Shown here in pieces: positions 12,396 through 64,000 of a stretch of DNA of 64,000 nt; the first letter of the stretch is position 1, and each line of letters opens with the position of its first letter. The notes beneath the pieces are model-generated. The model was not told the DNA's origin, did not search any database, and saw only the letters and a program-made list of their open reading frames with translations. The translations under genes were made by a program, and so were the position numbers. Origin of the DNA: Ophelia neglecta (lineage: Eukaryota); contig OZ260662.1 of the NCBI GenBank assembly GCA_965285935.1, positions 2,108,001-2,172,000 of the forward strand. Direction: 5' to 3'.

Positions 12396-12397
12396 TT

Positions 12398-31300: not shown

Positions 31301-31855
31301 TGTGGACGGGTAAATTCCCGCGCTTTAATATATAGTTCCGATAGACGGAGCGCTTAGTGTTACACTATATCCCGCGGTCGTCTATTCACTTGATTGCCGC
31401 GGATATTGATTGTTCGTTGTACTTTACCACCACTAGGCGTCGCTCACCGCTACCTACGCGGCACCTTTAAACTTGGAATACATTCTTTCTCTACTGACCG
31501 GCTAAGAGCCAACACCACTGGCAAACCGCTCTATATAGTGGTGTAGCATGTGAAAATAGAATCCCGTTACAAACTGGGTAAGAGTTAGAACATATGTTTG
31601 TCACTTAGGTGAACATTGTATTCATCCCCGATTATACGTTCATTTTATATTATTTCTATTACAATGGTTTCTGTAATGCTATGATTTCCGTTATTATTTA
31701 CTTTACATTGTTATGTTCATTCGATTACAGATTCTACTTATTCTATTGTATCAGTGTATATATAACCATCGCCGCAAATAGATTAAAGATCACCAAACCC
31801 ACAAGAAAAATATGTCTTCATCCTCATTATAATTAGGACAAACATTTCCTCTACA
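31301..31855 (+). repeat. Gypsy LTR3 (3')
   Basis: Ends ctctaca, followed by TSD ggtt. Confidence 0.93.
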
Positions 31856-36918: not shown

Positions 36919-37672
36919 AGACAGCCAGGTGTATGATACAGACAGCCAGGTGTATTATACAGACAGTCAGGTGTATGATAAAGACAGCCAGGTGTATGAT
37001 ACGGACAGCCAGGTTTATGATACAGACAGCCAGGTGTATGATACAGACAGCCAGGTGTATGATACAGACAGCCAGATGTATGATACAGACAGCCAGGTGT
37101 ATGATACAGACAGCCAGGTGTATGATACAGACAGCCAGGTGTATGATACAGACAGCCAGGTGTATGATACAGACAGCCAGGTGTATGATACAGACAGCCA
37201 GGTGTATGATACAGACAGCCAGGTGTATGATACAGACAGTCAGGTGTATGATAAAGACAGCCAGGTGTATGATACAGACAGCCAGGTGTATGATACAGAC
37301 AGCCAGGTGTAATATACAGACAGCCAGGTGTATGATACAGACAGCCAGGTGTATGATACAGACAGCCAGGTGTATGATACAGACAGCCAGGTGTATGATA
37401 CAGACAGCCAGGTGTATGATACAGACATCCAGGTGTATGATACAGACAGCCAGGTGTATGATACAGACAGCCAGGTGTAATATACAGACAGCCAGGTGTA
37501 ATATACAGACAGCCAGGTGTATGATACAGACAGCCAGGTGTATGATACAGACAGCCAGGTGTATGATACAGACAGCCAGGTGTATGATACAGACAGCCAG
37601 GTGTATGATACAGACATCCAGGTGTATGATACAGACAGCCAGGTGTATGATACAGACAGCCAGGGGTATGAC
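36919..37672 (+). repeat. 21-bp minisatellite, ~36 copies (ATACAGACAGCCAGGTGTATG)
   Basis: Highly homogeneous tandem array. It produces the spurious MIQTARC/YDTDSQV ORFs. Confidence 0.97.
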
Positions 37673-40532: not shown

Positions 40533-41254
40533 CTTGAAATGTAGAACATTCAATGACTTGTGGTTATTAGTCAAGACGTGTCAGTATGCGTGGTGATAGT
40601 ATCTTATTATAATCACATTTGATTCAGTGACCTTGAACAACAAACATAGAATGTTTATTTTATAAAGTATCTCATTATAAATAAAGTCTGTGCAAACAGT
40701 TCCAACACATACCCCAGGCATTGCCCGATGGCCATGCTTATAGACGTATAAAATACTATAAAACAGTGTGAATTTCTTAATGAATACACTTGGTGTGCCC
40801 CATCAGACACTACACAAAAGTAATCGTCGTTCGCCTTTTATTTATTAACACTTAATCGAGGTTTAAGCAAACATCTAGGTCAGCCAAGGACGACACTCCT
40901 TGTGTATTTTTTATATTGGCATATATATTATATATATTGCCATATATATTAAATCACATATTTTATGAGGATATTTGTCATCACTAAACATAAAAGAGAC
41001 ATTGTACATACATCTCAATCTATTTTGACCTTGAAAATAAGGGCAATATTACAGTCCCGGTAAGTAGGCGATACATTGTGTATGCCTTACTACTGGCAAT
41101 CCATATGTTAATATATATTTTTCACTCTCTGGTCACCACAAGATATTCATATATTATGTTAATATTTTTAAGTGACTGATAAGCACAGGTTTGTCATGGT
41201 CTTATGTTGTACTGCTTGTACATGATATTTACCCTACCCATCGAGTTCCGGTGT

Positions 41255-41530
41255 CTGGTGGTAGTTATCTTACTACAGCTGGGCTGGGAATGGAGAACAC
41301 AAGGTGTCTGCAGGTTATTATTTACTATAACCCGGGATAGGAATGGAGAACACAAGGTGTCTGCCGGTTATTATTTACTATAACCCGGGATAGGAATGGA
41401 GAACACAAGGTGTCTGGCGGTTATTATCTTATTAGAACCTGGGCTGGGTATGGAAACACAAGGGCGGGTTGTTATTATCTTCCTATAACTGGGGCTGGGA
41501 ATGGAGAACACAAAGTTTCTGGTGGTTATT
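41255..41530 (+). repeat. ~54-bp minisatellite, ~5 copies (GGAATGGAGAACACAAGGTGTCTG..GGTTATTAT...)
   Basis: Tandem degenerate units. Confidence 0.8.
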
Positions 41531-41968
41531 ACTAGATATCACTAAATGGACGATAGTTACCCGTGAACGGGAACTCCGTTATAACTGAAGGTCTTTACAA
41601 CAGAGTATGCGTTTAAGCCGGCTGTGTCATGGCCAGTTTGGTCAGCGCACCTTATGAGACCGTCAGAACAGGCTGTTTTAATAACTGGTTTGGCAGGTGT
41701 CTGTCTCACCGCTTCAAGCCTTTCTAGCCTTTCAGTGCCCAGATTCGCTTATTATTCTACCAGTCAGCAGAATATCTGGGCAGTCTACCAGTCAAGGTAA
41801 ACTAATATCGCTGATCGAATAACGCCTAAGACAAATCATTTATAACATCATAGTCAAATAGTCGTATTGGAGTAGGAAGGAACAGTTGACCACCCCACAC
41901 CCAGCTTTACTGCAGAAATAAACTTTCGTCGACATTTAGTGTTTATGACACAATCTCAGCTTATTTAG

Positions 41969-44900
41969 TGTTGTGTCCCGCTATTAAAAGGAGAAGGGGA
42001 TGGCCTAGATGATTCACTAGAACACGAGACTGAGTAAACACGAGTTTTATTCATGGCACCGGAAGCACTGGTAGCACTGGTACATTTACATTCGCTAGGT
42101 GACAGCACTAGACTGACCACCACCACATCTCCCCAACTTAGTAAGGAACTACAGTTCCTGTAAATAAAACAGGCTATCTTAATTTCTTTTTTTTTCTTTT
42201 TTTTTTTAAGAATACAATCTTTCACACATACAATCAAATGATCAAATAAACTGTAATACCTTAACAATACTGTTGTTGTTGTTGTTATTAAACTAGCAAA
42301 AAAAACTGTATGTGTCACTTGAAACAATGATGTGTATGGTATGATGAGTTACATTTTAATGCAATATCTTGCCATATACTAGTAATCAAAAACTTCAAAC
42401 TACTTAATACTAGACTGTTAAGCAGTTAAGCTAATTCTCCAAACTTGCAGTCCTACTAAATTTAACCTTTAATACAACAAACAAAATCTTTAGTCCAAGC
42501 AGGTTTTTCCCTGACTCTGCAGGACCTTCTTAATTCAACTTCAGGAGTATTGGCTGCTAACTCATTGGTACTGTTTTCTACACAGGGGGAGGCATTACTT
42601 GTGTGTACATTAGTCTCTGCACTAACAATGGGGGAACTGGGTTCTCCCAAATTAACTGGGACCTGGGCCTCATCTGGAGTGACAGGGCTAGAACACTCCA
42701 GCTGCTCATCCTGGCTGTGATCTTTTTACATGCTCAGTTGACCTAAATTTTCTAGTACCATTTGAGTCTTCTAAAACTACACCACCATTTTCCAGTTTGA
42801 CAACTTTGTAGGGTTCTGATTCATATTGCTTGGTCTTTAGTTTACATGAAGTATCACGCTCCCTGAGCTTACTTTGCCAGTCAATTTCAGTAAATTTAGT
42901 ACTACCAATTTGTAATTTAGGCAACTTGTCCCTGAGCTCTCTACCCATCAATGCTTGAGCAGGCGAAACACTTGTAACAGTGTGGGGAGTGTTTCTATAC
43001 TGAAATAAGAAATTTTCTACCTCCCTTTTCCAATCTTTCTTTTCAACTTTGGCAATTCTAATTATTTTCAACAAAGTTTCATTAAACCTCTCCACACACC
43101 CATTGCTTTGTGGCCAATATGGGATGCTACACTTGTGCTGTATCCCCAAGTATTCTAGAAAAGCTTCAAATTTTTCTGAATTGAAAGGGGGGCCGTTGTC
43201 ACTTCTAACAGTGAATGGAATACCATGTGTTTGAAATACAGTCTCCAGACATCTATTCACATGTTCAGCATCGGTTTTTCTAAGCAATATCACTTCAGGC
43301 CAACGTGAATAATAATCAGTGATCACTAATAAATGTTGACCACCAGAGACTTCAAGCAAATCTGTGGCTATGTCACACCATGGACCCTCAGGTAAAACAG
43401 TAGACGTCAAAGGCTCAGGTACAGGTCTTGCACCAACTAACTGGCACGGGTAACAGCTCTGATTCAGTTTCTCAGTTTCTCGATCCATACTGGGCCACCA
43501 AACTTTACCCCTAAGGCGGGACTTTGTCCTCACAATTCCTTGATGACCCTCATGAGCCAGCTTAAGTACATGTGACTGCAAGCTCTGGGGGATAACCAGC
43601 CTATTGCCCCGTAAAACGATATGTCCATACAGCCACAGCTCATCTTTAAGAAACCAGAATGGAGTACTTTTTAGAGTAGCCCAATTACCAGACAATATGC
43701 ACTTTTCAACTTTCTGCAAGACAGGGTCTTTTGCAGTTTCTGTTTCTATTAATTTGGGTGAAAGTGCTGATGGGACAGTCTCTATAACAGTACTGTAAGC
43801 AAAATCTTCAGTATTCTGACACTTGTCAGGGTCTTTGCTATCAATTGGTAGTCTACTCAGTATGTCAGCATAATTTGATGTGCCACTGATATGTACAATT
43901 GTATAGCCAAAATCCTGTAAAAACAGTAGCCAGCGCTCTACCCTAGCCGATGGTGGCTTTGAATTTGGGCTCAGCACCTTTAACAGTGGCTTATGATCAG
44001 TTCAGATCTGGAAGTTTGTTCCTATCAGGTATAGTCTAAATTTATCACATGCCCACTTCACTGCCAAACATTCCCGCTCAAATTGTGAATATCTTTGTTC
44101 TGTGGGGGTTAATTTGCGACTGGCATAGTGAACAGGTCTGTATTGGCCATCTTCTTGTAATTGTTCTAATATTGCACCAACACCCACAGGGGAACCATCT
44201 GTGGTCACCCTAGTTTTTGCATCAGGCCTATAGTAGGCCATGACAGGAGCGGTTGTCAACTTTTCTTTGAGCTCACAAAATGCTTCCTCATGTTCAGAGG
44301 TCCATTTCCAATCTACTGAAGCTCCTGTCAGATTCCACAGTGAGCTGGTTATGATTGCAAAATTCTCAACAAATTTTGAGCAAAATTGTGCTAAACCCAA
44401 AAAACTGCGCAATTCAGCTTTGCATGTTGGCCTTGGAGCCTCTGTGACAGCCTTAATTTTACTTTCGGAAATTTGTACCCCTTGTGCTGTCATAACATGA
44501 CCCATGAAAACCATCTTGTCTCCAATTTCACACTTGGAATAATTCAGGGTCAACCCATGTTCTTTGAGACGGAGTACTACTATCTCAACTCTCTCATACA
44601 ACTGCTTATAGTTTTCTGCTACTACTCGTATGTCGTCATGGATGTTGTGCACGCCAGGACACCCCTTTAATATCTGACTTATAATATTTTGAAACTTTTC
44701 TGTTGCCATGTTTACACCAAACACCAGCCTTTTGTAGCGATACAATGAATCTGGACCTGCAAATGTTGTGATGTCCCTACTACTTTCATCTAGCTCTATT
44801 TGGTGAAAAGCCATACTCATGTCTAGTTTACAGAATACCTTTGCACCACTTATTTCCTGCAAAGTTTCATCTAAGGTTGGAACGGGATGTTTCTCCCTTA

Positions 44901-46830
44901 CAATAGCTCTGTTTGCTTGGCGCATGTCTAGACATAACCTGATGTCACCAGAAGGCTTCTCTACAGTTACCAAAGGATTAACCCATGAAGTTGGGCCAGT
45001 GACTTTCTCAATTACATCAAGTTTTTCAAGTTCGGCTAGTTTTTTACGAACTTGTGCCCTCCTGTTAAACGGAATACGCCTGTGCTGTGATACTGGCTCT
45101 ACATTGTGATCTATGTGTAGCTTTAGCTTGTAATTCTTTAGCTTACCTACACTCTCAAATACACTAGGGTATTTCTCCCTCATACCCTCCAAAATTTTGG
45201 TACCTTGTACATTTTTCTCAGACATACATGCGTTTACCTCAAACCCAACACGCAGCATGGTCAACTCTTCAGAGGTTTTAAGCCCCAACAATGTAGGCTT
45301 GTTACCTGGTACAACAATAAAATCAGCAATACAACATTCATTACCAGCTTCCACATTCAGTGCACACCTGCCCAATACATCTAATGGCTGCTTGGAGCCA
45401 TATGTGAACACCCTGCTATCGCAGTTTCTTAACCTTACATTATCATCAGCCAACATGTTAAAAGTTGATTCTGAGATTATATTGCAAGTGGCACCAGAGT
45501 CTATTATTACAGGTGTGTCTGTATATTGGATACTAATATTGAAAGTATCTTTGTTCCTTGAATCAGAAGATGTTCTGAAAGCAAAATAGTCAAATGCTGA
45601 ATTAACAGTTTCTTTCTCAACAGTCTCTTGGTTATCAGAATTGTCTTCTTTCACCTGTCGGACATTTTGTCGACCACCACGAATGCCTGAGCCACGTCCT
45701 CTGAAATTCCCGGAATTTCTCTCTCCGGACCTACTAGTTGCAGCCCCTCTGCCGCGATGACTGCTCCTGCTGCCACGATGACCAAATTGTGACTGTCCTC
45801 TGTTGCCGTATGCTCTCCCACGACCTGGCCTTCCTGTACCGGGACTACCCTGGTTTGTCGGCGGAGGGTGATCACCTTCACGTGGGCTGTTGCGACTGCT
45901 ACTGTTGCAGTCACGGGCTTTGTGCCCCACCTTCGAGCATTTCCAGCAACGAAATGGAAAATAGCTGTTAGATTTTATGAAGTTTGCACTTTGAGTGTTC
46001 TCTGACTTTTCTCCATTTCCATCACAGAGAATAAGGGCACTCCTGTCACTAAAAGAACGTATTATTTCTATTGTCTTTTCTAGTGTGAGGGTCTCTTCCT
46101 GGTATAGTTTACTCTTCAGGGACTTGTTGGTTATGAACAACAATAAACGGTCCCTTACATGGTTGTTGGATTCCTCACCATATTCACAGTCCTTTGCCAA
46201 CGCCTTCAGTCGAGTAATGAAACTGTCTATTGTTTCTCCTGTTTTTGGTGAACATGTAATAAAGTTCTGACGCACTAGAGGTGTATTCTTTTTTAGTTTG
46301 AAATGTCCATCCAAACAATCGGTGAGCTTCTTGTATTCGCCATCATTTCCCCTCTCGACTTCCGTTTTTGTGTAGTAGATGTCTCTAATACCTTCACCGG
46401 CCATGTGTAACAATAACGCACGCTTCTGTGTATCATTCGAAACACCAGAAGCCGTGCAAAACAGATTAAAGTCATGTAACCACCGGTCCCAGCGAGTTTT
46501 CAAGGACTCCGGTGAACCAATACAGTCAAATGGCTGCAGGGCCGGCAAGCCGCTCAACGTTACAGCAGAGGCCATTTCGCCGTTCAATTTTTGCTTCAGA
46601 ACAGGCACTATTCACTTAATGTTTGCTTCAGAACAGACACTACTCACTTAATTTTGATCCTCGTCGCCATTTGTTGTGTCCCGCTATTAAAAGGAGAAGG
46701 GGATGGCCTAGATGATTCACTAGAACACGAGACTGAGTAAACACGAGTTTTATTCATGGCACCGGAAGCACTGGTAGCACTGGTACATTTACATTCGCTA
46801 GGTGACAGCACTAGACTGACCACCACCACA
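41969..46830 (-). mobile_element. Gypsy LTR retrotransposon, Mag-like, inside an intron of the LRR gene
   Basis: 159-bp LTRs at 41969-42127 and 46672-46830 appear identical. 5-bp TSD TTTAG. PBS TGGCGACGAGGAT is complementary to the tRNA-Ser(GCU) 3' end. PPT aagttggggaga. Single gag-pol frame. Confidence 0.97.
42706..46608 (-). pseudogene. gag-pol: Mag-like gag-pol polyprotein interrupted by one in-frame TGA (44004-44002)
   Basis: CCHC (CWKCSKVGHKARDC), protease IIDSGA, RT (LCLDMR, IHDD), RNase H (TDGS, FQI*TDHKPL), integrase (HEGHQG, SDNGPPF, SNGCVER). Confidence 0.93.
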
Positions 46831-47699
46831 TTTAGAAAAAGCATGCTCACTCTTAAAAATTCCGAAGGCGTGCCCCCTATGCTTTGAAGAAAAGGAAGTG
46901 TGGTCGAAATTGAGTGGAATTACTGCAAAAAAGCTGGGCAGTGTGGCCTTGACTGATGTTTACAATGCGCACATATGTTTCAGAGTACTACAGCTGAGGT
47001 TGCTAATATTAGATCAGAGACTGTGTGCACCAAAAGCAGCCTCATGAAATGCTGGAATTGGTGCAAAATTATATCATTTGTACAATATGTTAGTGCATTG
47101 ATAACTGTATCATCCACCCCCCCCACCCCCCTCCATACGAAAAACTGCTAGTTTCAAACAGGCGTGTAAATTTTACATACCAGTCATATATGTTATATTA
47201 TGTTAGAAAGAACTGTGATTGGTTTAAGGATGTAGACTTACTTGCATTAAAGTTCAAGGGGCCATACAAATTTACAAAAGTTAGATAATCAATAGACTTT
47301 TCCACCCTAGAGAATATACGCGGTTCATTCAGTTCCATTTCATTAATACTCCTTCGCTTATATTAAAGGCGCAAATATTGATGTTAACCAAATAAATGCA
47401 TGTGACAGTGTATGACTACAGTGTTGAAACAACACTTCTAAGAAGAAAATTTGAGTTATAAATCCCGAAGAGGCGCGTATAAGCAGGCGAAAGTGCCATT
47501 GACATACATTTATACACGCACTAGTTAACTTTGACATTACTGTTATACAATTGTCATTGATGTCTGTGTTGACGTTAAATAAATCTGACCATTTATTGTG
47601 GTATGGGTTTCTACGCAATTTTTCTGAACACTGTAGATAGAAATGTCAGGTCCTATACATTTACAATTATATGTAAAAAAAATACACTCGATAACTTAC

Positions 47700-47783
47700 T
47701 CTAGCTTCTCCAGTACAATATTCTTTTGGAGAGCCTGAGCCAGGTGCCTGGCTCCCTCGTCACCAATATCACATCCATTCAAC
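47700..47783 (-). pseudogene. LRR exon (84 nt) with mutated acceptor: LNGCDIGDEGARHLAQALQKNIVLEKLE
   Basis: Perfect 28-aa LRR and GTAAGT donor, but the acceptor reads ataccGG instead of AG. Confidence 0.8.
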
Positions 47784-48009
47784 CCGGTATAATGGAATAA
47801 TACAATAATCCAAGGATGGGATTGTTGTAGTAGTTTTTACATGCATCTTACGTCAACTCTTTTTAATATTGATTAATCTGTTAACAATTGCTATATTATA
47901 TTCTAACGATCAAATGGTTTATTCTTGGAAACTGGGTTTGGCAATTGCCATGTAGCCTTGGTTTATAACTAGAAGTTAAATACACAGAGTTAAATAATGC
48001 GGTTTTTAC

Positions 48010-48122
48010 CACCCAAACGATCTTCGTCAATATCAATCTGAGTAGTGTTTAAATATTTGTTGATATGGGGGGCTTCCGCAATACATCTAGCACCCTCATC
48101 ACTGATAGTACGGTACCATAAA
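48010..48122 (-). pseudogene. Decayed LRR exon: LWYRTISDEGARCIAEAPHINKYL...
   Basis: LRR consensus is recognisable. The acceptor reads tttccAA, and the available GT donors are out of phase. Confidence 0.65.
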
Positions 48123-49479
48123 TTGGAAATATAAATATTCATAAAACAGAAGGTTATTTCAGTTATTCAGAAATTTTGTCTAAAAGAAAAGTCTATTAAT
48201 TATAGTACTTTTGTAATGGAACTTAATGGCGTGGGGTTCAATGCCTTATTTTATTTGCGGACCCCACGCCTTTTTACATCACCTAATAAGAGGCTGGACA
48301 AGATGAACACAGTTTTTAGGGCCAGGACAACCAAGCCGGCAGAATCGAGATTCTTCCCTCCCAGTCTCCCGTCCTCATTCCAACCCTCATTAACTATGTT
48401 AGCTTATTATTGGGATGTGCTACCTGTAAATATATGCTATAAAAAGTAGTGTTGTTAGTCGCCGGACCGCTTAGTATGCACTTATCATAAATAAGCACTA
48501 CCTGTAGTCTCTTAACCAACTTTGGTTTATGGCCTGCTTCCCCGAAAATGAGCATCCCGGTAGCACCATTTCTTTAAATATTATATCATAATTTTCGAGC
48601 AGCACAAGATTATATATGATATCACAATCTGTTGAATTACTCAGAGTAGATTTTATAAGTGCAATATTGCTGTGATTATATTGTCACTACTGTATGTGTT
48701 ATCGTGACTTTACCGGAACTTAATATATTGGATAGGATTTTTATTATCTTGTTTATCTGAGAGAGCTTAGTCCATCATATTCTCTCCTATGGCTTTGTTA
48801 TCTTTATACAACGTTGACCATTGATTAAATTTTGTTATACTGTGTCTGCTTAGTGTCCACTCGCGTTTACTGCTAGTAGAACGGACACCCCACACGCACG
48901 GCTTTGTCAGTTGACAAGACTCCTGCCACACAGGCTGGATGCCAAGTCAACTTATGGGTAAGAAACCAACCATAGTATGTTTATTGATAAGGCTGTTGTT
49001 CTGCACATATGTGTATAGCGAGTCAAACGTATGACTTTCTAGAAACTTACCCATGCTTTGCAGTCCCGAAAGTGAAATTGTATTGCTAGCCACGGTACTA
49101 TAACCTGATTTAAATATTATAGCCATTTTTGCAACGTTCCAGATATATAATTCCCCCTTAAAAAAGATAAGTTGCAAACGCGAGTTGAATGGTAGCATCA
49201 ATAGGTGGGGCACATGCCTATATGGGCTATGTAGACCTGATTCAATTTCAATTTTTCAATTTCAATTTAATTGCCAAACAAGATGTAAACGGTACCTAAT
49301 ATGAATTATAAATTTTCAATAATAAAAAAGCACTCGTAAAGGAAGGAAATCCTAATAGTTTTTTAGCCATGGATGGAGAAGCCACTGGCTTATTGGTCCC
49401 TAATTGTAGTACCAAGAAATTACTAAATTATACTTAGTAATGATTGAATATTACAAAAAAAAAACGAACGGAAAGCTTG

Positions 49480-50170
49480 GGATTGATATCTGTAAGTGGG
49501 AGACGGTTCAGCTTGGTAGTGATATGTATGGGTCCGCGGGGGACGGTTAAGCTTGGTATTGATATGTATGGGTCCGCGGGGGGACGGTTCAACTTGGTAT
49601 TGATATTGATAATTTAATTGTGCCTAAAGCAAATTCCAACTCAGGTCTAAACACCTTTGCATGTACAGGGGCAAGGCTATGGAATGCCTTGCCTAATCAT
49701 CTCAAGTGCTTATCTAGTTAGGAGATGTTTAAGTCTGCCTGCAAACAATTTTTTGGAACATATTGTAATTTCTAGTCTGGCATTTTTTTCCATATAAGGC
49801 TATAAATGTTACCAAATGGATATGTGTCGCTTGCTGCTATTATTTTGTGGTGCTATGTATTGTCGTCCACTCTCTATGTGATGGTGCCATATATTTATTG
49901 TCTGCTGTGATATACATTGTATTTTGTACACCGTCTATTTACTTTTTATTGAATAAAATCAAATCAAATCAAAGCAATCATGGCTCCGCCGGGGACGGTT
50001 TAGCTTTGGATTGATATGTGAGGTCGGCATGTGAAGGTTCGACTTGGGATTGCTATCTGTGGGTACCCAGGAAAAGGTTCTGCTTGGTATTGGTATCTGT
50101 GGTCCCATGGAGACTGTTTGGGATTCGTAGTGATATCTGTGGTCAGCAGGAGACGGTTCAGGATTCCCGC
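49480..50170 (+). repeat. ~39-bp degenerate minisatellite (GGGGACGGTTCAGCTTGGTATTGATATGTATGGGTCCGC) interrupted by a LINE 3' end
   Basis: Units are present on both sides of 49610-49975. Confidence 0.75.
49610..49975 (+). mobile_element. 5'-truncated CR1/L2-group LINE 3' end
   Basis: Translates VPKANSNSGLNTFACTGARLWNALPNHLK, followed by a 3' UTR, AATAAA and an (AAATC)n tail. Confidence 0.8.
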
Positions 50171-50368
50171 AGAAACAATTTCATTGTACTGCTTTTGCTA
50201 TCGATGTTTAATAGATCGGGTAGTCATTTATCAATTAAAATCTACATTAACCAGCAAACTCGTAAATACAGACTAAAGGCACATTGTCCCGGGATGGGTA
50301 ACATATTTATAATAATGACTGAAAGAGGAAATTTTCAAATCAAAAAAAAAAAAAAAATTGTTACTTAC

Positions 50369-50452
50369 TTTAATGTTGTAATCGATTGCTTGACTTTGAT
50401 GCCATCTGCAATGTGTTTGGCTCCCTTAGCACCGATGGCATTAAATGTCAGT
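50369..50452 (-). CDS. LRR exon (84 nt): LTFNAIGAKGAKHIADGIKVKQSITTLK
   Basis: Acceptor cttttccAG, donor GTAAGT, phase 2-2, NLRC3-type 28-aa LRR. Confidence 0.9.
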
Positions 50453-51099
50453 CTGGAAAAGATCAATAAAGATAAATCCAGGTGTTTAGCCATTTTATGT
50501 CAATGAATGTTGTCAATTATTATAATCTTATTCATCAGATTTGCTTTGATATCATAAAGCAACAGTTAGCAATGATAAGCGTAACGGTGGTGTCTAGTTG
50601 CCTAGTAACCTATTTGTTTTACACACTCAGAACGGAATAGCACAATAATGGGCAAGTAGGATGGTCTGCCATGACATGTATGTTTACACGGATCGTACAT
50701 CAAACCCAATTCAAAGATAATGTTCTATCCGCAATGCTCTATCACATGTGTAGGACAACCTGATCATGTTAAACCAAATTATACGTGCATTGGGCCATGG
50801 ATGATTTGAGGCGAGTCAATGGTCGACTGGCGCGAGATGAACCCCTTGTAAAACGAGGCAGATGGTCTCCACCTTACTCAGAGTCTAATAACCAAGATTA
50901 GACGAATAAAGAGGCACACGTAGAATACCTATTTGACAGTTGAAACTCAACTCCCATGCCTCAAGCAACAAAAAGGGACCGAAGTGACATAGAGAAGGTG
51001 TAGTTCTGATTGATATATTTGACCAAAGGGAATCATCCGAGTAAATAGGTGAGGAAGTGGCAGGAATGATGGCAAACAAACAAAGCTAACTCAAGGTAA

Positions 51100-52220
51100 A
51101 AAAGAGACTGAGCTTAGGTCATCTAGTTGGAAAAATACAATCAGGGGTCTGAAGGGTATCAAGAAAAAAAGTGTACTCCTCCAAAAAGGACTTTGTTGTA
51201 TGATTGTTTTTATTTGATGGTGGGGGACGGTAAACCACAAGTAGCCTAACACTCTTATCTTTCGTCCGAAGCATGACGTCAATATATTCAATTTTTTGAC
51301 ACCTGTCCCCCTCAATGACAGATGTGGAAAAGTTTTCCTTAATAAGAATACCAACACCTCCATAGCCCTTCTACCTGGACTGTTGGTGGAGCCTATAGCC
51401 GGGAGGACACAGGGCAGCAACAACCGGATCATCCTCACCATTCTGTTTTAGCCAGGTTTCAGTTATCAAGAGAATGTCAACATCATTTTCTGTGATATAA
51501 TCATGGATCTTATTCGCCTTATTTCTCACAGATCTAGTATTTATTAAACACATATGAACTTGATTTTGTTGGGCCTCAGGTGCGGTCAACTTGTTTGTGG
51601 TCTTGATGTGAACCAAGCTTGGCATTAATTCATGCGCATGGCCCATGACCAGTGGCAGGCCCTTGTCATGGTGCTTGTTATTGTTTATGATCACTAGTAT
51701 TTGTTGTGGTTCCTCTATGGTACATTGCACAATATTGTCTAGATTGGGGCCCTGTTGACTGACCTGCTCATACTGACCAGGAGTGTTAATAACCACACTG
51801 AATTTTCTAAAATGCTTCTTGCCTGCAGTGGTACCACGGGTAGCTGGCTTCTTTGTGACCCCAAAGCTGTCAAGGATGGAAGTGAGTCACTCACTGGGGA
51901 CAATTCCTGGCCTATTGAGAGATCTTAGTTGGTTACAGCTGTATGCTATCCTCCTGGGTTTGCCTGCCAGGCACATGGTTAGAACAATGAGAGTTAGGTT
52001 CAATCTGTAGGCCCACATCTGACATACGAGCAATTCAGTTTGAAAAACTTGGAAGTCCTGGTAAAAATCACCATAAGAACACTAAAAGCTCAAAAAGTAC
52101 AACATCACATAAATTAAAAATCCAGGAACGCTGATGAATATCCTGACATAGAATCAACCACCACGAATGAGTGTTAGAGGCAGTAAATCCCAACAAAACA
52201 GGAGCTCACTGGAGGCCTGT
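51100..52220 (-). mobile_element. 5' part of a CR1/L2-group LINE (AP endonuclease), present only in copy A
   Basis: CLINTRSVRNK...DILLITETWL...PPGY endonuclease motifs. Confidence 0.85.
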
Positions 52221-54909
52221 CGCCTTAGCGCCTAAGACCAAATAAACCAAATGGAATCATCCGAGTAAATAGGTGAGGAAGTGGCCGGAATGCTGGCAAA
52301 AACAAATGTACAAAAATAGACTGAGCATAGATCCTCCAGTTGAAAAATTCAATCAATAAAAATATTGGCGAGAGGATGGTCGTACCTGGCTTGTTTAAAG
52401 AGATCAGGTCGACCCTAAGCACCCTCTTCATTAAAAAAACTGCAAAAAGCAGTGATGTAATCAGCAGATGTAATCAAAACAATGACTTAACTTGCATTTG
52501 GGGGGAAGACAAACCCTTCTGATACCGCCTGGCAAAGATTGGTTATAGGTGGCCCGGAAGCTATACCTCTGATGAGCTATATCAATAATGAACTGTCCCA
52601 GCACAGAAAATATGAACCGAAATATGCGTTGAGCAGTAAATACCAATAGGTTTTATAATGTCAGTATTAAGACTAGGGAAACAAACAAGACAAGTCTATT
52701 GATCTAAACTCTCCTCTCTTATTTTTATTTCTAATAACGAAGTGTACATATGTGTAGAGATAGTGGTGATCATTCTGGTCCTGCCAGTTGATTGGATAAA
52801 GGAGGATATAGTCAGGAGAGCGCAAGCGAATCGAGATAGGCAGAGTGAGAGGTATACATATCTATTGCTAACCAAACGTTCAAATAAAATAGAGAGCAAG
52901 AATAGTGGGATTCATTAGGGTAAAGGGTGTTTACTGACATGCCGAGGTTTTTAAAATTAAAATGTCTTCATTGTTGAAAATCAACACAATTATTCTTAAA
53001 TTATCATAGTTTATAATATCGAATATGTGTATACATGAATTATGGCAACATCATTTACAATATTGACAGGAACTGGCGTCATGCCACAATTTAACTAGTA
53101 ATTTGATTTGACAGAAGATTAGTGTAAAGACATGTGAATAATTGAAGGCAACAGTCATGAACTAATCTGTTCCTTTAAAATATTATAAAAAAATAACTAT
53201 TAGTTTACTTAACATATATAATTCCATAACCATACATATATACAATATAATTAACGTTATTCGTTAAGCGTTAAAATTAACGTCACCCCACGATTATTAG
53301 TTTAAAAAAAATTACATAGTATTAAAAAAAGGTAGAGTGAACAGAAAACAGGGGCACTCAGGACTCGGTACCAGGCACTGATATAGCTTGGGGTCGTAAT
53401 ATATCGATTGAAGGAATGAAGAACCTTGCCATGAATGACATAAAGTTCTGAAGTGTGTGGTTTATGAATTAGGTTCAAAATTCTATGGTTATAGAATTTC
53501 GCAATAGGGAGCAATTTGGGAAACATTATTTTAGACTTTGTGTTAATGATTTCCTTTTCCGTTTCTCCCCAATCCACGCTTAGATAAGCGAGATAGCATG
53601 CTTTCTCCATATTTAAATTTAGTAGGCAGTGGTCAGAGATAGTGTCTCGTTTACCCTGAGCACATGGACAAGCATCGAATCCACCACACTGGAAAATTTT
53701 AAAACTACTTCGGATTGATAGCGGGAGTTATTATAGTAGTAGAACAGGTTATTCTGTCGAATCTTGTCGTAGACAAACACTGTGAGATTGGTGAGGCCGA
53801 TCATTAAAGATAGAGCCAACATGCCAATAATGGCACAGGCAAACACTCTATCGATAGGTTTAATCCTACTGTCTTTGTCGACCGATCAACGGCAAACATT
53901 GGTATCGGTGTCTACTCAATTAGTTTGGGCAAAGCTGCCGAAGTTACAGCGAGTAACAATTTACGGTGTTTACCAAACAATCTTGTTAAAACTAATGCCA
54001 ACGAAATTACAGCTGCAAATGACAGGCCAAACAAGGTAATTGAAAAATATATAGTAGATATTTGCCGTCGGACGAACTAGGGTGTATGTGTGAAAAGAAA
54101 CTTCTGTCCCCTTGAACACTCAAACGCTGCTTGAGGAAGTCTAGTGAAACTAAATTACGTTGGTCAGCTGCCAACCCAAACGGTAAATCAACAAGTAGAC
54201 TTGTATCAAAATCAGGCAATCTAAACAGCTAACGGTTGTCTGGCAAGCTGACTAGGTAGAATATTGTGGTATTAACTAGGAGTATAGAAATTTTAACACT
54301 AAATCTGGAACTGAAGTTAAAAACAAAAGAAATAAAACACTGGGTTGTGAACATGAATTCGATTTTAGGAACCACACAGAATACTCGGACTCGGAGGCAA
54401 AGGAATTTGTCAATAGAGATTGCAAAATAACTGGCAATTTAAAGTGAACAAAACTAACCTCAAAAGAAAAGTACAAATCTTAAAAATGCAGATCTTAAGT
54501 CCGCATTATATTAGAAGAGTCGTTTCCAATAAGATCCGAAGTTTTAAAAAAGCTGTTTCACAAACTCTTTTTAAAATATCATAAAATAGGAAACTCAACG
54601 AATCAACCCTAAACATAACACAATATTTTAATTCTCAAATCGGTGAAAAAACTGATATTAATGACAGTAAGTTCTTAGATTTTCTAGAGTGCAGTGATTT
54701 CATACAAAATGGTTTGAAACCTACTCATATACATAGACACATACTTGACCTGGTGATAGGTATAAACCAGTTTAGAGAGTAAGCGGGGGTTGAACTTCCC
54801 ATGGGATGAGCCGGTGCCAGAAGGAAGTGTAAAGTTCTACTGGCCGTTTCTGTCCTGGCTTGGAGAATCTGGCACACGGCACTATCAGAGTTGCCAGGGG
54901 GGTTTCTAG

Positions 54910-56100
54910 TTGGAGGTTTACCAAAGTAACATCATCACCGTAGCTGGGCGAGTAGGAGTCGTGCCCATATATACCGGTCCCTTTCTACACGTTGACAGTT
55001 TGGCTAATAGTCAGTTAAAGATAAAGACACACAAGAGCAAGGATAACAGACCACCCTGGTGTAGGCGTTGCCATGACTCAAAACTTCGGGATTTTGGAAC
55101 CGCCTTTGAAGATTGGAACCTGGATGGCTTTCCTGAAGCATAAGGATATATATTCAAATTTAACCATAGCATTGACGATATCAGTCAGCACGGTAGGCAG
55201 GCGGGCACCCCCAAATTGTACATAGAGTAAGGCTTTCTATACCACCGGCTTTCTCAAGTTTCAGGCGCGCAATCATGGACGCAGTTTCCTCCTTGGAAAG
55301 AAGGGTTTGAAGATGTTGACTTTCTCTGTGTCTAACTGCGCCATATATGTTGGAACCTCCCCATTGACTAGGTATTTGAAGTCAATTTGATAGGTGTTTC
55401 CACATTAGGGCTGGTTAGATCAATGTAATATCTACGCTATTCTTCACGGATATTGCCCATATCTCATTTTCGATGGCGGGCGTCTTTATCAGACAGCCAG
55501 CTTTGAGTTTTCTTTCACGAGTTGCCAATAAAAGTCTTGATTGAGCTACCGGAAGTGATGATTTCTGCTTGTTTTTTAACGTCCTTGTTGTGTATTGCTT
55601 TTCTCCTTCCTGTATGCACCTTTGATGATTTGTACTGCTGGAAAATATCGTTTTGGTCGGCACGTGGCCTAACCGCACCAATCCAAGCATGCAGGGCGGA
55701 AAACTGGTCCCTTTTCAGTGTATTCACCTAAGTACTCTGGCGAGGTTTTAACCACCGTTTGAACCCGTACCACGGGATGGTATTTTCAGCCGCGGTGTCC
55801 AGCATATTTGTGACTGTTTTTGTGCCACTATCATTGCAGTTTATATATGAGCTCAGCTTCATCAGCCTAGGCACTTCAGTATGATACATTATGTGAAAGG
55901 ACTTTAACTTTAGGATCAGTAAGAATGGAAGGTGATCTGAAAGTAAGTTTTGGTCGTCTTCCAGGACAGCCAAACTTATAATGAGTTAAAACAGACAAAA
56001 CTAGGCAGTGGTCTAAATAGCTTCTAATGTCACCATTCCCAATGTAGGTACATCCTGGACATGTAGTATTTTCTCACGCATCCTCTGGCACCATGACTTT
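54910..56100 (-). mobile_element. Decayed LINE ORF2 fragment (endonuclease end to RT start); second copy at ~61900-63200
   Basis: LSDHLPF motif. Copy B reads LKLGKAGGIESLTLEHV...VPIFKGG. Confidence 0.75.
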
Positions 56101-56199
56101 TTGTTATGATGTGGTCATCGAGCATCCTGTCATTACGCCTTAGTGCGGGGTAGCCTTGCGGGCTATACCTTACACTAACCTGCATATTGGCTTCTCATA

Positions 56200-56990
56200 C
56201 TTCACTTGGGGAACCGGCCCACCCTGTCTCCCACTATTTTAGAGATGAAGTGAGAAAGATATAAGCTGACCTTGATTCGATGAGAACTTCTCAACTTATC
56301 CCATTCTCTAAAAACCTTTGCTGGTGCTCGTGCTCCGTTAGAAGGCTTAAAACGGCAACTATTGATGGAATTAGGTCAATTATAAAAAATATCTGCATCA
56401 AAACCATGTGAGCTTGACCCTTGGTCCAGGTGGGTTCTCAAGGTCACCCTGGAGTTTGTCCTACCTGCAATTACCCGAATCAAAAATTTGTCCCGGGAAT
56501 CGGGAATGCTGCCTAACCTGCTATGGAAAACGGTCACTGGACCAATTCTAAAAAGGCAAACCTGGACAAGGTCTCTCTCGGTAATTACCTTTCTTAATTG
56601 ACAGAAAGAGTTGTAGCCTCTAGTTTTGTTGATCATATGCAAAGAAACCACCTTGACGAGGTATAGCCGTCAGCATATTAGATGAACCACAGTGTGGAGA
56701 CAGCATTGCTGCACGTATAATATGACATTCCGAGGGCACCTGATCAACTATATGGAGCACGAGTTATTCTCGGGCTCCTAGATTTGTCTTCGGCATTTGA
56801 TTCCGTGAGTCACTTCGTTCTCTTGGTAAGTCTGTGAAATTTAATAGGTATGTGCAACCTAGCTAATAGTTGTTGTAACTCTAACCTGACTGATAGGTGT
56901 CAAAGTGTTTCAATAGGTGCTACTGGGAAGTGAGATCCCTGCCTTCTGGACAGCGTGGTTCCACAAGGTAGTGTTTTGGGCTCCTTGCTT
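56200..56990 (+). mobile_element. Decayed L2/CR1-like RT fragment; partial second copy at ~63340-63812
   Basis: CELDP, HSVETALL, LLDLSSAFD and VPQGSVLG motifs across broken frames. Confidence 0.8.
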
Positions 56991-57734
56991 ATAGACACAG
57001 AATAATGGTGCGCTTAAGACATACCCTTACCTCATTCCTCTTCAGACAACCTGTATGTTTTTATATATCCCGGTGACCGGCGACTCAGTGTGTCTAAGTA
57101 TCCTTGGGATAGTGAATGGTATGAACGCGATCCTGTCATCAATTTCTACTGGAGTCAGGTTTAGATGAAGTCCTGTGTACCCGTTCAGTGATTACATCCT
57201 TTAAGTTCAATTATTACTTAAGTATGACCTTTATATCAGCATTAAGGTGTGCTTGTTTTCTTGTGTCTTAAATATCATATCCCTCCAAAGTGTCCGTCTC
57301 ATGCTCCTTTTCATATAGCTTTTCCACTAGGTGGGCTATCCCCTTCTCTAGATCAGTAATTCGAAAATCGTATTCCTTGCAGTGACTTTCAATGTCTCTC
57401 ATACTTTTTCCCTGAGTATCTAGTTTTCCTCAGTGGAAGTTACCTTTGCAAGGATTAAATCCAGCGTTTGTTCCTGGGAGTTACCCACCTGAGTAGATCC
57501 TGAGATAATGGCAATCAAGCAGAAAACTTTGACATTTGTCCATGGTACTGCTTTTGCTATCGAGGTTTGATAGACCATGTTGTTATTTATTAGTTAATAT
57601 GAATAAGTACATTAACCACCACACCTGTCAAAGTACATACAGCCTATAGCCACCTTCTCCGGGGACGGGTAACATATTTATAATAATGGCTGCAAGAATA
57701 GATATTCGAAACACAAACACAATTCGTTACTTAC

Positions 57735-57818
57735 TCCAATGTTGTAATCGTTTGGTTGACTTTGATGCCATCTGCAATGTGTTTAGATCCCTCAGCACCA
57801 ATGCTATTAAAGCTCAGA
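57735..57818 (-). CDS. LRR exon (84 nt): LSFNSIGAEGSKHIADGIKVNQTITTLE
   Basis: Acceptor cttttccAG, donor GTAAGT, phase 2-2. Paralog of 50369-50452. Confidence 0.9.
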
Positions 57819-60800
57819 CTGGAAAAGATCAATAAAGATATATCCAGGTGGTTAGCCATGTTATGTCAATGAATTTTGTAAACTATTATAATCTTATTCT
57901 CCAGATTTGCATTGATATTATAAAGCAACAGTTCGCAAGGATAAGCGTAACGGGAGTGTCTGGTTGCCTAGCAACCTATTTGTTTTTCACACTCTGGACT
58001 GGTAAGGAATAGTGCAATAATGGGAATTTGGGATGGTTTGCCACGATATGTAAGTTAACACGTATAGTACATCAAACCTAATTCAAAGATAGTTTATCTG
58101 CTATGCTCTATCCCAGGTGTAGGATCACCTGTCCCTTTTAAACCACATGGCTCCAGGACTTTCAAGCTATACGTGCAATGGGTCATGGAGGAGTTAAGGA
58201 AGGTTAATGATCAGCTAGGCGGAGACGAACCCCTTGTAAAATGAGGCAGATTGTCTCCACCTTACTCAGAGTCTAATGAGCAAGATTAGCCGAACAAAGA
58301 GTCACACGTAGAGTACCTATTTGCCAGTTGAAACTCAACTCCCACACCCCAAGCAATAAAATAGGACTGAAGTGACATAGAAATAGGTGGAGTTCTGATT
58401 GACATATTTGACCAAAGGTAATCACAACAATGACTCAGCTTGCACTTGAGGGGAAGAAAAACCCTCCTGATACCGCCTGGCAAAGATTGGTTATAGGTGG
58501 CACGGACGCCATAGCTCTCATGGGCTTTATCAATAATGAACTGTCCCAGCACCGTAAATATGGACCGAACTATGAGTTGAGCAGTAAATACCGATAGTTC
58601 TACATTCATAATAAATATACATCAGTTCTTGTTGAGTTTAATCTTTGCACGGCTATGGCAGATGCTAAACAAGTGGCCTGTTGAGGAAAAAGGCCACTGG
58701 ACAACAGTCTCCAAGAAATGGCCAGGAAATGGAACCAGAACTGGAAACGGCACAAGCAAGAGAAACAGGTTTTATAATGTCAGTATTAAGACGAGGATAA
58801 CAAACACGACAAGTTGATGTCTATTGATCTAAAATCTCCTCTCTGATTGATGTCTTTTGATTTAAAATCTCCTCTCTGATTTTATTTCTAATAACGAAGT
58901 TTGTACATGTGTACAGGTAGTGGTTATCATTCTGGTCCTGCCAGTTGATTGGATAAAGGGGGATAAAGTCAGGAGAGCGCAAGCGAATCGAGATAGGCAG
59001 AGTGAGAGGTATACATATCTATTGCTAACCAAGCGTGCAAATAGAATAGAGAGCAAGAATAGGGGGGATTCATTAGGGTAAAGGGTGTGTACTGACATGC
59101 CGAGGTTTTTAAAATTAAAATGTCCTTATTGTTGAAAATCAACACAATTATTCTTAAATTATCATAGTTTATAATATCGAATATGTCTATATATGAATTA
59201 AGGCGACATCATATACAATATTGACAGGAACTGGCGTCATGACATAATTTAACTAGTAATTTGATTTGACAGAAGATTAGTGTAAAGACATGTGAATAAT
59301 TGAAGGCAACAGTCATGAACTAATCTGTTCCTTTAAAATATTATAAAAAAATAACTATTAATTTACTTAACATATATAATTCCATAACCATACATATATA
59401 CAATATAATTAACGTTATTCGTTAACCGTTAAAATTTCCGTCACCCCACGATTATTAGTTTTTAAAACATTACATAGTATTAAAATAAGGCAGAGTGAAC
59501 AGAAAACAGGGGCACTCATGACTCGGTACCAGGCACTAATATAGCTTGGGGTCGTAATATATCTATTGAAGGAATGAAGAACCTTGCCATGAATGACATA
59601 AAGTTCTGAAGTGTGTGGTTTATGAATTAGGTTCAGAATTCTATGGTTATCGAATTTCGCAATAGGGAGCAATTTGGGAAACATTATTTTAGACTTTGTG
59701 TTAATGAATTCCATTTCCGTTTCTCCCCAATCCACGCTTAGATAAGCGAGATAGCATGCGTTCTCCATATTTTAATTTCGTAGGCAGTGGTCAGAGATAG
59801 GGCCTCGTTTAACCTGAGCACATGGACAAGCATCGAATCCACCACATTGGAAAAAACTACTTCGGATTGATGGCGGGAGTTATTATAGGAGTAGAACAGG
59901 TTATTCTGTCGAATCTTGTCGTAGACACACACTGTGAGATTGGTGAGGCCGATCATTAAAGATAGAGCCAACATGCCAATAATGGCACAGGCAAACACTC
60001 TATCGATAGGTTTAATCCTACTGTCTTTGTCGACCGATCAACGGCAAACATTGGTATGGGTGTCTACTCAATTAGTTTGGGCAAAGCTGCCGAAGTTACA
60101 GCGAGTACCAATTTACGGTGTTTACCAAACACTCTTGTCAAAGCTAACGCCAATGAAATTACAGCTGCAAATGGCAGGCCGAGCAAAGTAATTGAAAAAT
60201 ATATAGGTAGATATTTGCCGTCGGACGAACTAGGGAGTATGTGTGAAAAGAAACTTCTGTCCCCTTGAACACTCGAACGCTGCTTGGGGAACTCTAGTGA
60301 CACTAAATTACATTGGTCAGCTGCCACCCCAAACGGTAAATAAACAAGTAGACTTATATCAAAATCAGGCAATCTAAACAGCTAACGGTTGTCTGGCAAG
60401 CTGACTAGGTAGAATATTGTGGTATTAACTAGGAGTATAGAAATTTTAACACTAAATCTGGAACTGAAGTTAAAAACAAAAGAAATAAAACACTGGGTTG
60501 TGAACATGAATTCGATTTTAGGAACCACACAGAATACTCGGACTCGGAGGCAAAGAAATTTGTCCAAAGAGAAATCAAAATAACTGGCAATTTAAAGCGA
60601 GCATAACTAACCTAAAAAGAAAAGTACAAATCTTTAAAATGCAGATCTTAAGTCCACATTATATAAGAAGAGTCGTTTCCAATAAGATCCGATGTTTTAA
60701 AAAAGCTGTTTCACAAACGCTTATTGAAATATCCTAAAATAGGAAACTCAAGGAATCAACCCTAAACATAACACAATATTTTGATTCTCAAATCGGTGAA

Positions 60801-60888
60801 AAAAGCTGATATTTATAACAATAAGTTCTTAGATTTTCTAGAGTGCAGTGATTTCATACAAAATGTTTCGAAACCTACTCATAGAAAT

Positions 60889-61726
60889 TATAGCGATATT
60901 GATCTTTTATTAAGTACTAATCAGTTCTAGCCTATCCCCAAGGCATAGAATAATAATTTTATCCATTACTAATAGTCCAGATGGGGCCTATCCTTGTATC
61001 TTTAGGCTGTTAGGTGCTTGAATGGTGTGCACTGTGGTAACAATGCACTGAATGACCAGGGGCTTGACAGACCAGGGAGTGACTCTATAGACTGGGGACA
61101 TACAAGACAGGTAGGACAATATATAGGACGGTTGACAGCTACAAGTCATGCAAACATTGTACAGGATATGTTCAGTAGTCTTTGGCTTATTATCCACAAG
61201 AACAAATTATAGAAACTGGTGCAATGTTCTTGGTGTTTAAACTGGATTGCATTGCTTGGTGGGGTGGATCCACATGCAGTATAGGACACTGCATCCCCAC
61301 TTCTGTGTTGTGCTTATTCATATGACAGAAGGGGAATTCTGTCTAGTGCCTATCTTGTGTTCATTAGGAGCTGGTCATGACCAATGCTAGATATCAGCCA
61401 TTTCAGGAGCTGTCGGGTAATGGCACTACCCCATCACCAAGAATGTTTCCCCGAAACATTCAAAAGAAACGCCAGTCTAAGAGGCTTGATATATTCTACT
61501 TAAGAAATCAGCCCCCACATTATCTGTGCCTTTGATAGCATGAATTTGGAAGCGGTAATTTTGTAGGAAGAGTGCCCAACGCATTATCCTGCTGTTGGCT
61601 ATTTTACATCGATTGATGTACATCAGTGGTTGGTGATCCGTTTGGATCACAAACTCCCTGCCATACAGGTATATCTCAAACTCTTTTGAACTAATTAGCA
61701 CTTAATAAAAGATCAATATCGCTACA
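60889..61726 (-). mobile_element. 838-bp Gypsy-derived insert with ~39-bp terminal inverted repeats and 5-bp TSD GAAAT
   Basis: Inverted ends tatagcgatattgatcttttattaagtactaatcagttc / gaactaattagcacttaataaaagatcaatatcgctaca. GAAAT at 60884-60888 and 61727-61731. Empty site in copy A (~54730). Contains the RNase H C-terminus (QTDHQPL...RWALFLQ...ADFLSR). Confidence 0.88.
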
Positions 61727-64000
61727 GAAATAGACACATACTTGATCTGGTATTAGGTATAAACCAGTTTAGAGAGTAAGCGGGGGTTGAACTTCCCATG
61801 GGATGAGCCGGTGTCTAGAAGGAAGTGTAAAGTTCTACTGGCTTTTCTGTCCTGGCTTGGAAAATCTGATACACGTCACTGTCAGAGTTGCCAGGGGGGT
61901 TTCTAGTTGGAGGGTTTTCTCGGTACTGTGGATTTTACCTAGTCCAAGGCGAATGTTAGCTGGTTGTACATCTCAGTTGCTAAAGGACTCGCATCTCCCA
62001 ACGTGGTAGTCCATGCACCATTTCTTCACCTATGTATTGGCAATGTCTAATATGGTCTGCATTTTCTTTTGGGTCTGTGGTTACCAGAGTTACATCATCA
62101 CCGTAGCTGGGCCAGTAGGAGTCGTGCCCCTATATACTGGTCCCTTTCTACACGTTGACAGTTTGGCTAATAGTCCGTTAAAGAAAAAGACACACAAGAG
62201 CATGGATAACAGACCACCCTGGTGTAGGCGTTGCTTTGACTCAAAACTTCCGGTTTATGGAACCGCCTTTGAAGATAGGAACCTCGATGGCTTTTCTGAA
62301 GCATAAGGATATATATTCAAATTTAACCATAGCATTGACGATTTCAGTCAGCACGGTAGGCAGGCGGGCGCCCCCAAATTGGACATGTTCCAGAGTAAGG
62401 CTTTCTATACCACCAGCTTTCCCAAGTTTCAGGCGCGCAATCATGGACCCAGTTTCCTCCTTGGTAAAAGGGGTTTGAAGATGTTGTCTTCCACTGTTCC
62501 TTACTGCGCCATATATGTTGGAACCTCCCCATTGACTAGGTATTTGAAGTCAATTTGATAGGTGTTTCCACATTAGGGCTGGTTAGATCAATGTCATATC
62601 TACGGTATTCTTCACGGATATTGCTCATATCTCATTTTCGATGGCGGGCGTCTTTATCACACAGCCAGGTTTGAGTTTTCTTTCACGAGTTGCCAATAAA
62701 AGTCTTGATTGAGCTACCGGAAGTGATGATTTCTGCTTGTTGTTTAACGTCTTTGTCGTGTATTGCTTATCTCCTTTACAGTATGTACCTTTGATTATTG
62801 GTACTGCTGGAAAATATCATTTTGGTCGGCACGTGACCTACCCGCACCAATCCAAGCATGCCAGGCGGCAAACTGGTCCTTTTTCAGTGTATTCACCTGA
62901 GTGCTCCGGCGAGGTTTTAACCACCATTTGAACCCGAACCACGGTATGGTATTTTCAGCCGCGGTGTCCAGCATATTTATGACTGTTTATATATGACCTC
63001 AGCTCCATCAGCCTAGGCACTTCAGTATGATACATCATGTGAAAGGACTTTAACTTTAGGATCAGTAAGAATGGAAGGTGATCTGAAAGTAAGTATTGGT
63101 CGTCTTCCATGACAGCCAAACTTATAACCTATATAGCTCCTAATGTCACCATTCCCAATGTAGGTACATCCTGGACCGGTAGGGTTATCTCACGCATCCT
63201 CTGGCACCATGACTTTTTGTTATGATGTGATCATCGAGCATCCCGTCATTACGCCTTAGTGTGGGGTAGCCTTGCGGGCTATACCTTACACTAACCTGCA
63301 TATTGCCTTCTCATACTTTACTTTGGGAACCGGTAAACACTGTCCCCCACAATTTTAGAGATGAAGTGAGAAAGATATAAGCAGACCTTGATTTGATGAG
63401 AACTTCTCAACTAATCCCTTTTGCTGGTGCTCGTGCTCCGTTAGAAGAGCTTAAAACGGCAACTATTGATGAAATTAGGTCAATTATAAAAAATATCTGC
63501 ATCAAAATCCTGTGAGCCACCCTTTGCCCAGGTGGGTTCTCAAGGTCACCCTTGAGTTAGTCCTACCTGCAATTACCCGAATCATAATTTTGTCCCGGGA
63601 ATCGGGAAAGCTGCCTAACCTGCTATGGAAAACGGTCACTGGACCAATGCTAAAAAGGCAAACCTGGACAAGGACTCTCTCGGTAATTACCTTTCTTAAT
63701 TGACAGACAGAGTTGTAGCCTCTAGTTTTGTTGATTACATGCAAAGAAACCACCTTGACGAGTTATTCTCGTGCTCCTAGATCTGTCTTCGGCATTTGAT
63801 TCCATGAGTCACTTTCAATTTGTTCATTTTGCTGAAGCAGGGATACTTTGGAACACTTCTTTTTCCACTGTATAGCTACAAAACCAATGTGGGCTATGGT
63901 CGAAAGTGATATATATGTGTTGACTAACTATAAAGTTACATTAACTGAAAAGGATGTAATAATAGGAATTCTAAGCTCACATAATGATTCCATTGCTAAT

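Follow-up and report, generated by a model that had tools for sequence, protein, structure and literature searches.

An 838-bp unit with inverted ends in the genome of Ophelia neglecta appears from its sequence to be composed solely of parts of one Gypsy family. With some reservation, we favour the view that it descends, by inversion and deletion in place, from a copy with two U3 ends, and that this copy came from a template switch during reverse transcription. The unit lies in the window, by which we mean the whole 64,000-nt stretch analysed (positions 2,108,001 to 2,172,000 of OZ260662.1, assembly GCA_965285935.1), and positions without a contig label refer to this window.

Structure of the 838-bp unit and its parent family

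The insertion spans 60889-61726, and its ends form an inverted repeat that matches at 36/39 positions, as a sequence-only reading of the window had reported. Pairing ends there (37/45 on extension), and an inverted-pair search of the window detected the terminal pair as a 37-nt pair at 95%, one of six inverted pairs of at least 30 nt. The clean 5-bp target-site duplication of the earlier reading also stands: ATTTC, read on the minus strand, occupies 60884-60888 and is repeated on the other side of the unit at 61727-61731, a 5/5 match with a chance probability of about 0.001. The left end is TGTAG. The right end is altered at base 2 (TG to TA) and reads TATA, not TACA, so that the ends are not the TGT...ACA pair previously described.

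From the left, the long arm (60889-61421, plus strand) contains bases 1-533 of the 896-bp family LTR, counted from the U3 tip. The parts beyond it lie on the minus strand. They are CC, present in neither source sequence, at the inversion junction (61422-61423); TG, the first two bases of a normal 3' LTR, which at the switch point also match two bases of the antisense LTR (61424-61425); the parental polypurine tract (61426-61438), the same as that before the 3' LTR in 2/2 family copies having one; 41 untranslated 3' bases that separate the tract from the pol stop (61439-61479); the last 68 codons of pol and the stop (61480-61687); and the short arm (61688-61726), comprising LTR bases 1-39 and 39/39 identical to arm B of the sister insertion described below. 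The RNase H C-terminus (PF17917 positions 62-105, E 1e-11), the stop and the purine-rich tract had all been recognised correctly. The start codon and upstream frame are absent from the pol remnant, and the unit is a dead fragment that encodes nothing complete.

The 537 bp beyond the tract had been taken for a complete LTR, but they consist of TG, CC and antisense LTR bases 533-1, or 60% of an LTR. Bases 534-896 are missing and both ends of the unit are LTR base 1. The TATA-like word and AATAAA that were read as LTR signals both sit on the antisense strand of U3, AATAAA at antisense bases 18-23. The inverted copy had been placed at the 39-bp tip, whereas it is the long arm that is inverted and the tip that is a normal LTR start. 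Microhomology of GTTC had been proposed between tip and pol; LTR base 39 and pol in fact meet with 0 shared bases, and the parent pol ahead of the junction reads A-I-K-K-F-E rather than V-Q-K.

Searching the same genome with the 838-bp unit returned at least 35 matches, among which the 838-bp form is found in one copy; these and our other DNA-search counts are lower bounds from one assembly. A full-length family copy (G000:C9:19930813-19937361) has 896-bp LTRs that differ at 5/896 sites (99.4% alike), a 5-bp duplication and the domain order gag, Integrase_H2C2 (zinc finger), rve core, RVT_1 and, last, RNase H. Its frames are interrupted, with the integrase and RT domains in one frame in which Integrase_H2C2 and rve come first. 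Integrase thus precedes RT in the parent, in agreement with the Gypsy origin and Gmr1-type order proposed earlier, and by domain order alone the family would be labelled a Gmr1-type Gypsy. Family duplications are 5 bp long, with matching 5-mers at 2/2 two-LTR elements and also at solo LTRs L051, L052, L056 and L059. Another family copy (G000:C12:71906673-71918438) has an insert of ~5.3 kb within pol. A solo LTR on the small contig C25 (G000:C25:167781-168671) shares flanks and duplication with the C12 copy and is probably its other allele after LTR-LTR recombination.

The family LTRs are of the TG...CA type and start TGTAGCG directly after the polypurine tract, while the far LTR end adjoins a primer site complementary to the 3' end of genomic tRNA-Pro (genes with matching 3' ends were present at 3/6 loci checked). 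Because the tip follows the tract and the far end adjoins the primer site, the tip is the start of U3. The inverted ends are therefore LTR-derived, as had been supposed, but represent U3 starts and not U5 ends. Nor does the parental LTR end in the repeat sequence, as that reading had anticipated, since in intact copies this sequence is the U3 start after the tract. Only three inverted bases (TGT/ACA) are common to the two LTR ends. The sole TATA run near LTR base 533, at 573-590, suggests that base 533 lies inside U3. We considered base 533 as a transcription start, with CC as a cap-dependent addition, and found this unsupported, the only nearby TATA run being that at 573-590 and a sense AATAAA being absent from the LTR.

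Empty sites, the sister insertion and the reads

The host repeat around the insertion has seven close copies on the same contig, of which two are filled and five empty (five distant loci were excluded from this count). One of the empty paralogous sites, at ~54735, had been noticed in the sequence-only reading; its target (54730-54734) lies in an older host-repeat copy that is ~5% diverged. Exactly one ATTTC is present in 3/5 empty sites. The empty paralogues are older than the insertion. They were also considered as excision footprints, which was rejected on the basis of their divergence of 5-9% and the presence of the target once.

The window contains a range of other repeats. From ~50000 to 64000, and continuing in G000:C2 to at least 2212000, it is occupied by an array of host units of ~6-7 kb with 88-98% identity; further units of the same array kind lie in G000:C2 near 970000 and 988000, and a weak endonuclease match at 51374-51886 within the array suggests LINE remnants. 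A tandem array of the form LTR-interior-LTR-interior-LTR at 22853-31855 has a period of 4,227 bp and is ~99% identical, with LTR-like units of ~556 bp that end in TACA, a primer-site-like word after two of them, and a weak PNMA (gag-like) match at 24822-25376; none of the frames tested gave a pol match. A minus-strand BEL/Pao retrotransposon at 14421-22150 has a 5-bp duplication and is very recent, since its 355-bp LTRs are identical. At 41969-46831 lies a Gypsy whose domains follow the usual order (RT, RNase H, integrase); its 160-bp LTRs are identical and it is flanked by a 5-bp duplication. Minisatellites are located at 36764-37800 (21 bp), 12389-12999 (~50 bp), 2617-3307 (35 bp) and 41250-41532 (53 bp period).

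The host segment around the element occurs twice, ~98% identical and 25 kb apart, and the second copy contains a sister insertion of 5,184 bp (G000:C2:2193931-2199114). Both insertions have the left and right flanks, the duplication and the TG>TA change at one tip in common. The sister runs from a full 5' LTR (A) through the internal region, RT, RNase H, the tract, TG and CC to inverted LTR bases 533-1 (B), with a U3 start at each end. A 968-bp deletion in its internal region, with 4 shared bases at the join, takes out the integrase zinc finger and core. The 18-base junction pattern (tract-TG-CC-antisense LTR) is found at two places in 762 Mb, the window and the sister, in opposite orientation relative to the shared flanks, and relative to the sister 4,346 bp are missing from the window copy after the flip. 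The earlier suggestion that integrase inserted the 838-bp unit itself is most likely wrong, because the same insertion persists as a 5.2-kb element at the duplicate site. The argument holds in either case, be the segments a tandem duplication or two alleles assembled in tandem. A 7.6-kb element (G000:C2:2180365-2187985; L031, L032), with 537-bp direct repeats differing at 7/536 sites and a 4-bp duplication, is found in the sister's copy of the host segment and is lacking from the window's copy.

The two LTR arms of the sister can be told apart by diagnostic bases. The window long arm agrees with A at LTR bases 2, 28 and 34 and with B at 158 and 521, where the derived bases of B were not found in the other family LTRs compared. 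On these bases the outer part of the long arm derives from A and the inner part from B, the changeover falling somewhere between LTR bases 35 and 157; such a hybrid would be the product expected from recombination between inverted arms. The three mismatches between the inverted ends of the 838-bp unit are exactly the A/B differences at 2, 28 and 34. A and B differ from each other at 9/517 sites (eight, plus one bordering a net deletion of 15 bp in B). Among 12 other LTRs with long overlap, the nearest shows 11-12 differences in ~530 bases and the rest show 13-60; one LTR with an 83-base overlap is not comparable and stands apart from this ranking. Four private substitutions are found in A and four in B, as expected if both aged from one sequence. 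The window and sister copies differ by 4 substitutions in 696 orthologous element bases, compared with 1.3-1.9% in the flanks (P ~0.017), and we count this low divergence against our preferred explanation.

Three contig sets built from reads cover the region, all from one sample that is possibly the assembly source. A 131-nt contig present in 2/3 runs spans both the tip/flank and the tip/pol junction, reaching 35 bases into pol, with 0 differences; as the sample may be the source of the assembly, the contig proves no more than the presence of the junction in reads. None of the contigs listed in the three sets bridges the tract/inverted-LTR junction or any sister-specific feature, and none of the read sets listed as holding the region is an RNA set. 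A joint that skips the element was found in 3/3 runs and may derive from the empty paralogues.

Probable formation of the two-U3-end copy and its collapse

The idea of a cDNA with two identical ends made by template switching had been put forward in the sequence-only reading with two U5 ends. The broad idea remains, with U3 ends in place of U5, and we hold it probable that a template switch at the polypurine-tract border made the two-U3-end insertion seen in the sister. Plus-strand synthesis begins at the tract/U3 border, and it is also here that the plus strand, as it nears completion, reaches the 5' end of the strong-stop strand. Two bases into the 3' LTR, synthesis at this border would have changed template and continued from base 533 of a plus-strand LTR, adding two untemplated bases and running off at LTR base 1 to leave a further U3 end. 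The product would be no different if a plus strand of 533 bases had mis-primed at the border. Integrase would then have inserted the two-U3-end DNA with the 5-bp duplication typical of the family. The evidence for this step is the position of the junctions: the outer ends are exact U3 termini, and the inner junction lies 2 bases past the tract/U3 border with a 2-base match and two extra bases. A 5-base target represents 0.08% of the element or 0.6% of the LTR, a post-hoc figure. The tract also has a 9-base inverted match to LTR bases near 556-564, but the junction does not use it, and folding of LTR bases 500-600 and 1-80 (run without shuffled controls) gave weak structures.

With the host segment present twice and an insertion in each copy, the 533-bp inverted arms of the window copy would then have recombined between LTR bases 35 and 157, flipping the interior, and 4,346 bp would have been lost by blunt joining of LTR base 39 to the pol end. 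A single template switch at a fork, or break repair, could give flip and deletion together. The inversion, the 4.3-kb deletion and their common location can be read from the two copies, and although the order of events is deduced, it is very probable that the 838-bp form arose in place in this way.

The inverted arm could alternatively have formed after insertion, the 3' LTR of a normal element being flipped or recopied at a fork with loss of LTR bases 534-896, before the same collapse. Before-insertion and early after-insertion origins would both predict that A and B started out the same, and the product of the switch is equally obtained if the full 3' LTR flips between its TGT/ACA ends and then undergoes a deletion. 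Such a flip leaves TG following the tract and CA preceding the duplication, which is what is observed, and the locus clearly does rearrange, with an inversion, a deletion and a segment duplication. We nevertheless give it a minor chance, as just three inverted bases are common to the LTR ends, both switch points would have to hit the LTR termini exactly, and a paralogue with direct LTRs is found in 0/7 sites. There is also an outside chance that one integrase complex inserted the U3 ends of two different cDNAs tail to tail, after which host repair linked the two free ends or the long palindrome gave way, so that one copy was truncated at the tract and its partner at LTR base 533. Such an event accounts for the normal 5-bp duplication as well as for a pair of exact U3 ends, and A and B are mutually nearest relatives, fitting two cDNAs of one source. 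A 2-base match with two filler bases is typical of end joining, and the junction has this form. However, the break 2 bases from the tract/U3 border becomes a coincidence and ~6 kb of the second copy has to vanish.

The order of the two forms might also be reversed. An 838-bp mini-cDNA would then have been inserted first, as the sequence-only reading proposed but with U3 for U5 ends, and the sister would be a later reconstruction in which the unit inverted at its 39-bp ends and the gap was repaired from another family copy. The shared bases at 2, 28, 34, 158 and 521 are formally compatible with this sequence of events, but a crossover would be required within bases 35-39, together with a 4.3-kb conversion from a donor nearer to arm B than any copy found; A and B, with four private substitutions each, look as if aged from one sequence, and the tip/pol junction has no microhomology. 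We therefore regard it as improbable. It is scarcely credible that the unit is a Ginger-type MITE that captured Gypsy DNA, the alternative raised in the sequence-only reading, or a member of a mobile LTR-derived MITE family. Its TGT...ACA-type ends and 39-bp repeat resemble the Ginger1 ends described in extracts of PMC2836005, but the duplication is 5 bp rather than 4-bp CCGG/CCGT, there is a single insertion site, and wherever the tip matches in the genome (12/12) it begins an LTR of the parent Gypsy family. An assembly artefact at the inverted repeat is equally hard to credit. Inverted repeats within a tandem array do assemble poorly, and the gaps in bridging among the listed read contigs would allow for one; against this, the tip/pol junction is spanned with 0 differences in 2/3 runs, the inversion junction is seen twice with private substitutions in each copy, and the duplication is exact against the empty paralogues.

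Relation to mobile element classes and significance

The 838-bp unit shows several of the features by which MITEs are recognised, being short, with inverted ends, a duplication and no coding capacity. The one assembly searched contained no dispersed copies, each at a site and with a duplication of its own. The junction pattern had been expected to recur with different duplications if the structure were mobile; its two places represent one insertion site and give no sign of movement in this assembly. The 19-nt tip pattern (one mismatch allowed) identified only starts of the family LTR in its 12/12 genome matches, so that the tip was found around no unrelated cargo and with no autonomous Ginger1 or Ginger2 partner sharing the same ends. 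In the same window, a 31-nt inverted pair at 87%, ~880 bp apart (47272-48216), is possibly a real MITE.

Other element classes also fit poorly. According to extracts of PMC2836005, Ginger1 ends begin TGTNR, with terminal repeats of ~40-270 bp and a 4-bp CCGG/CCGT duplication. Like Ginger1 and Ginger2, the unit has TGT-type ends and an inverted repeat of ~40 bp (39 bp, starting TGTAG, with the right end changed at base 2), but it is unlike them in being an 838-bp unit at one site with no transposase and with a 5-bp ATTTC duplication. Between its repeats lie the RNase H end, the tract and part of an LTR in place of a Ginger integrase-like transposase free of RT and RNase H; the sister has retained RT and lost the integrase core, its zinc finger and core both being deleted. 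The direct LTRs of an ordinary LTR element or TRIM, and the whole LTR ending in U5 of a solo LTR, are lacking in the 838-bp unit. DIRS elements, as summarised in part of PMC3950715, have inverted terminal repeats and a tyrosine recombinase; here no tyrosine recombinase replaces the DDE integrase, and the parent has an rve integrase.

In the available text of PMC8220671, Gmr1 elements have the order gag, integrase, RT, RNase H. The family resembles Gmr1-type Ty3/Gypsy elements in the domain order of the parent, the TG...CA LTRs, the tRNA-Pro primer site, the polypurine tract and the 5-bp duplications, while the insertion differs in having the U3 end on both sides and no right U5 end, and the window copy retains 13% of the element. 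The title of a 2002 paper by Hughes and Coffin reportedly refers to a retrovirus-related element resembling a DNA transposon. The literature searched, with most subscription journals outside its coverage, yielded HERV-K124 as the only structural precedent. Inverted, truncated LTRs are already known from HERV-K124, where truncated LTRs lie inverted against the 5' LTR in what the sections of PMC3625200 available describe as a rare event with an unresolved mechanism. The LTR element described here also has a truncated LTR inverted against a 5' LTR, but the host element is a Gypsy, and an intact parent is present together with a long inverted and a collapsed form at one site. What is unusual is that parent, intermediate and MITE-like end product occur in one genome, the latter two at the same site.

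Rearranged products of reverse transcription have been described in cereals, where, in the parts of PMC1950507 available, template-switched cDNAs were inserted as one piece and two parent elements sharing LTRs were fused. The abnormal switch and insertion of a rearranged cDNA as a whole would be alike here; in contrast to those examples, the LTR is inverted and partial, with two identical ends, and two parents are not fused. In one-ended HIV integrations, viral DNA of either strand is appended, usually with long host duplications or deletions (PMC5041404, in excerpt). Element DNA of either strand at one end is a likeness to such aberrant integrations with one host-repaired end, but, in contrast to the cases in that excerpt, the present insertion has exact termini on either side and a duplication of the normal 5 bp.

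Bao et al. 2010 proposed a pair of opposite LTRs flanking an integrase as a possible origin of Ginger1 ends, by a chain of events that the extracts of PMC2836005 call unclear. The locus is a concrete case of that opposite-LTR geometry, although the opposite LTRs come from one element and not, as in the extracted proposal, from two insertions, and the integrase has been lost with no spread. It is a long shot that Gypsy insertions with two U3 ends supply the missing first stage by which an LTR retrotransposon becomes a Ginger-like DNA transposon, with this locus a series caught in progress and the family integrase able to move such units as DNA in other individuals; the support here is limited to geometry. 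If it were true, a single copying error would place ends that integrase recognises in opposite orientation around the element, within one duplication, and the host would then trim the result to the size of a MITE by inversion and deletion. The inner junction, which falls 2 bases beyond the polypurine tract, also provides one data point on where reverse transcription errs. For the annotation of transposons the locus advises caution where inverted ends, a clean duplication and an empty paralogous site together give a MITE-like look, as a Gypsy insertion can give rise on the spot to an object with all of these marks that has apparently never moved as DNA.
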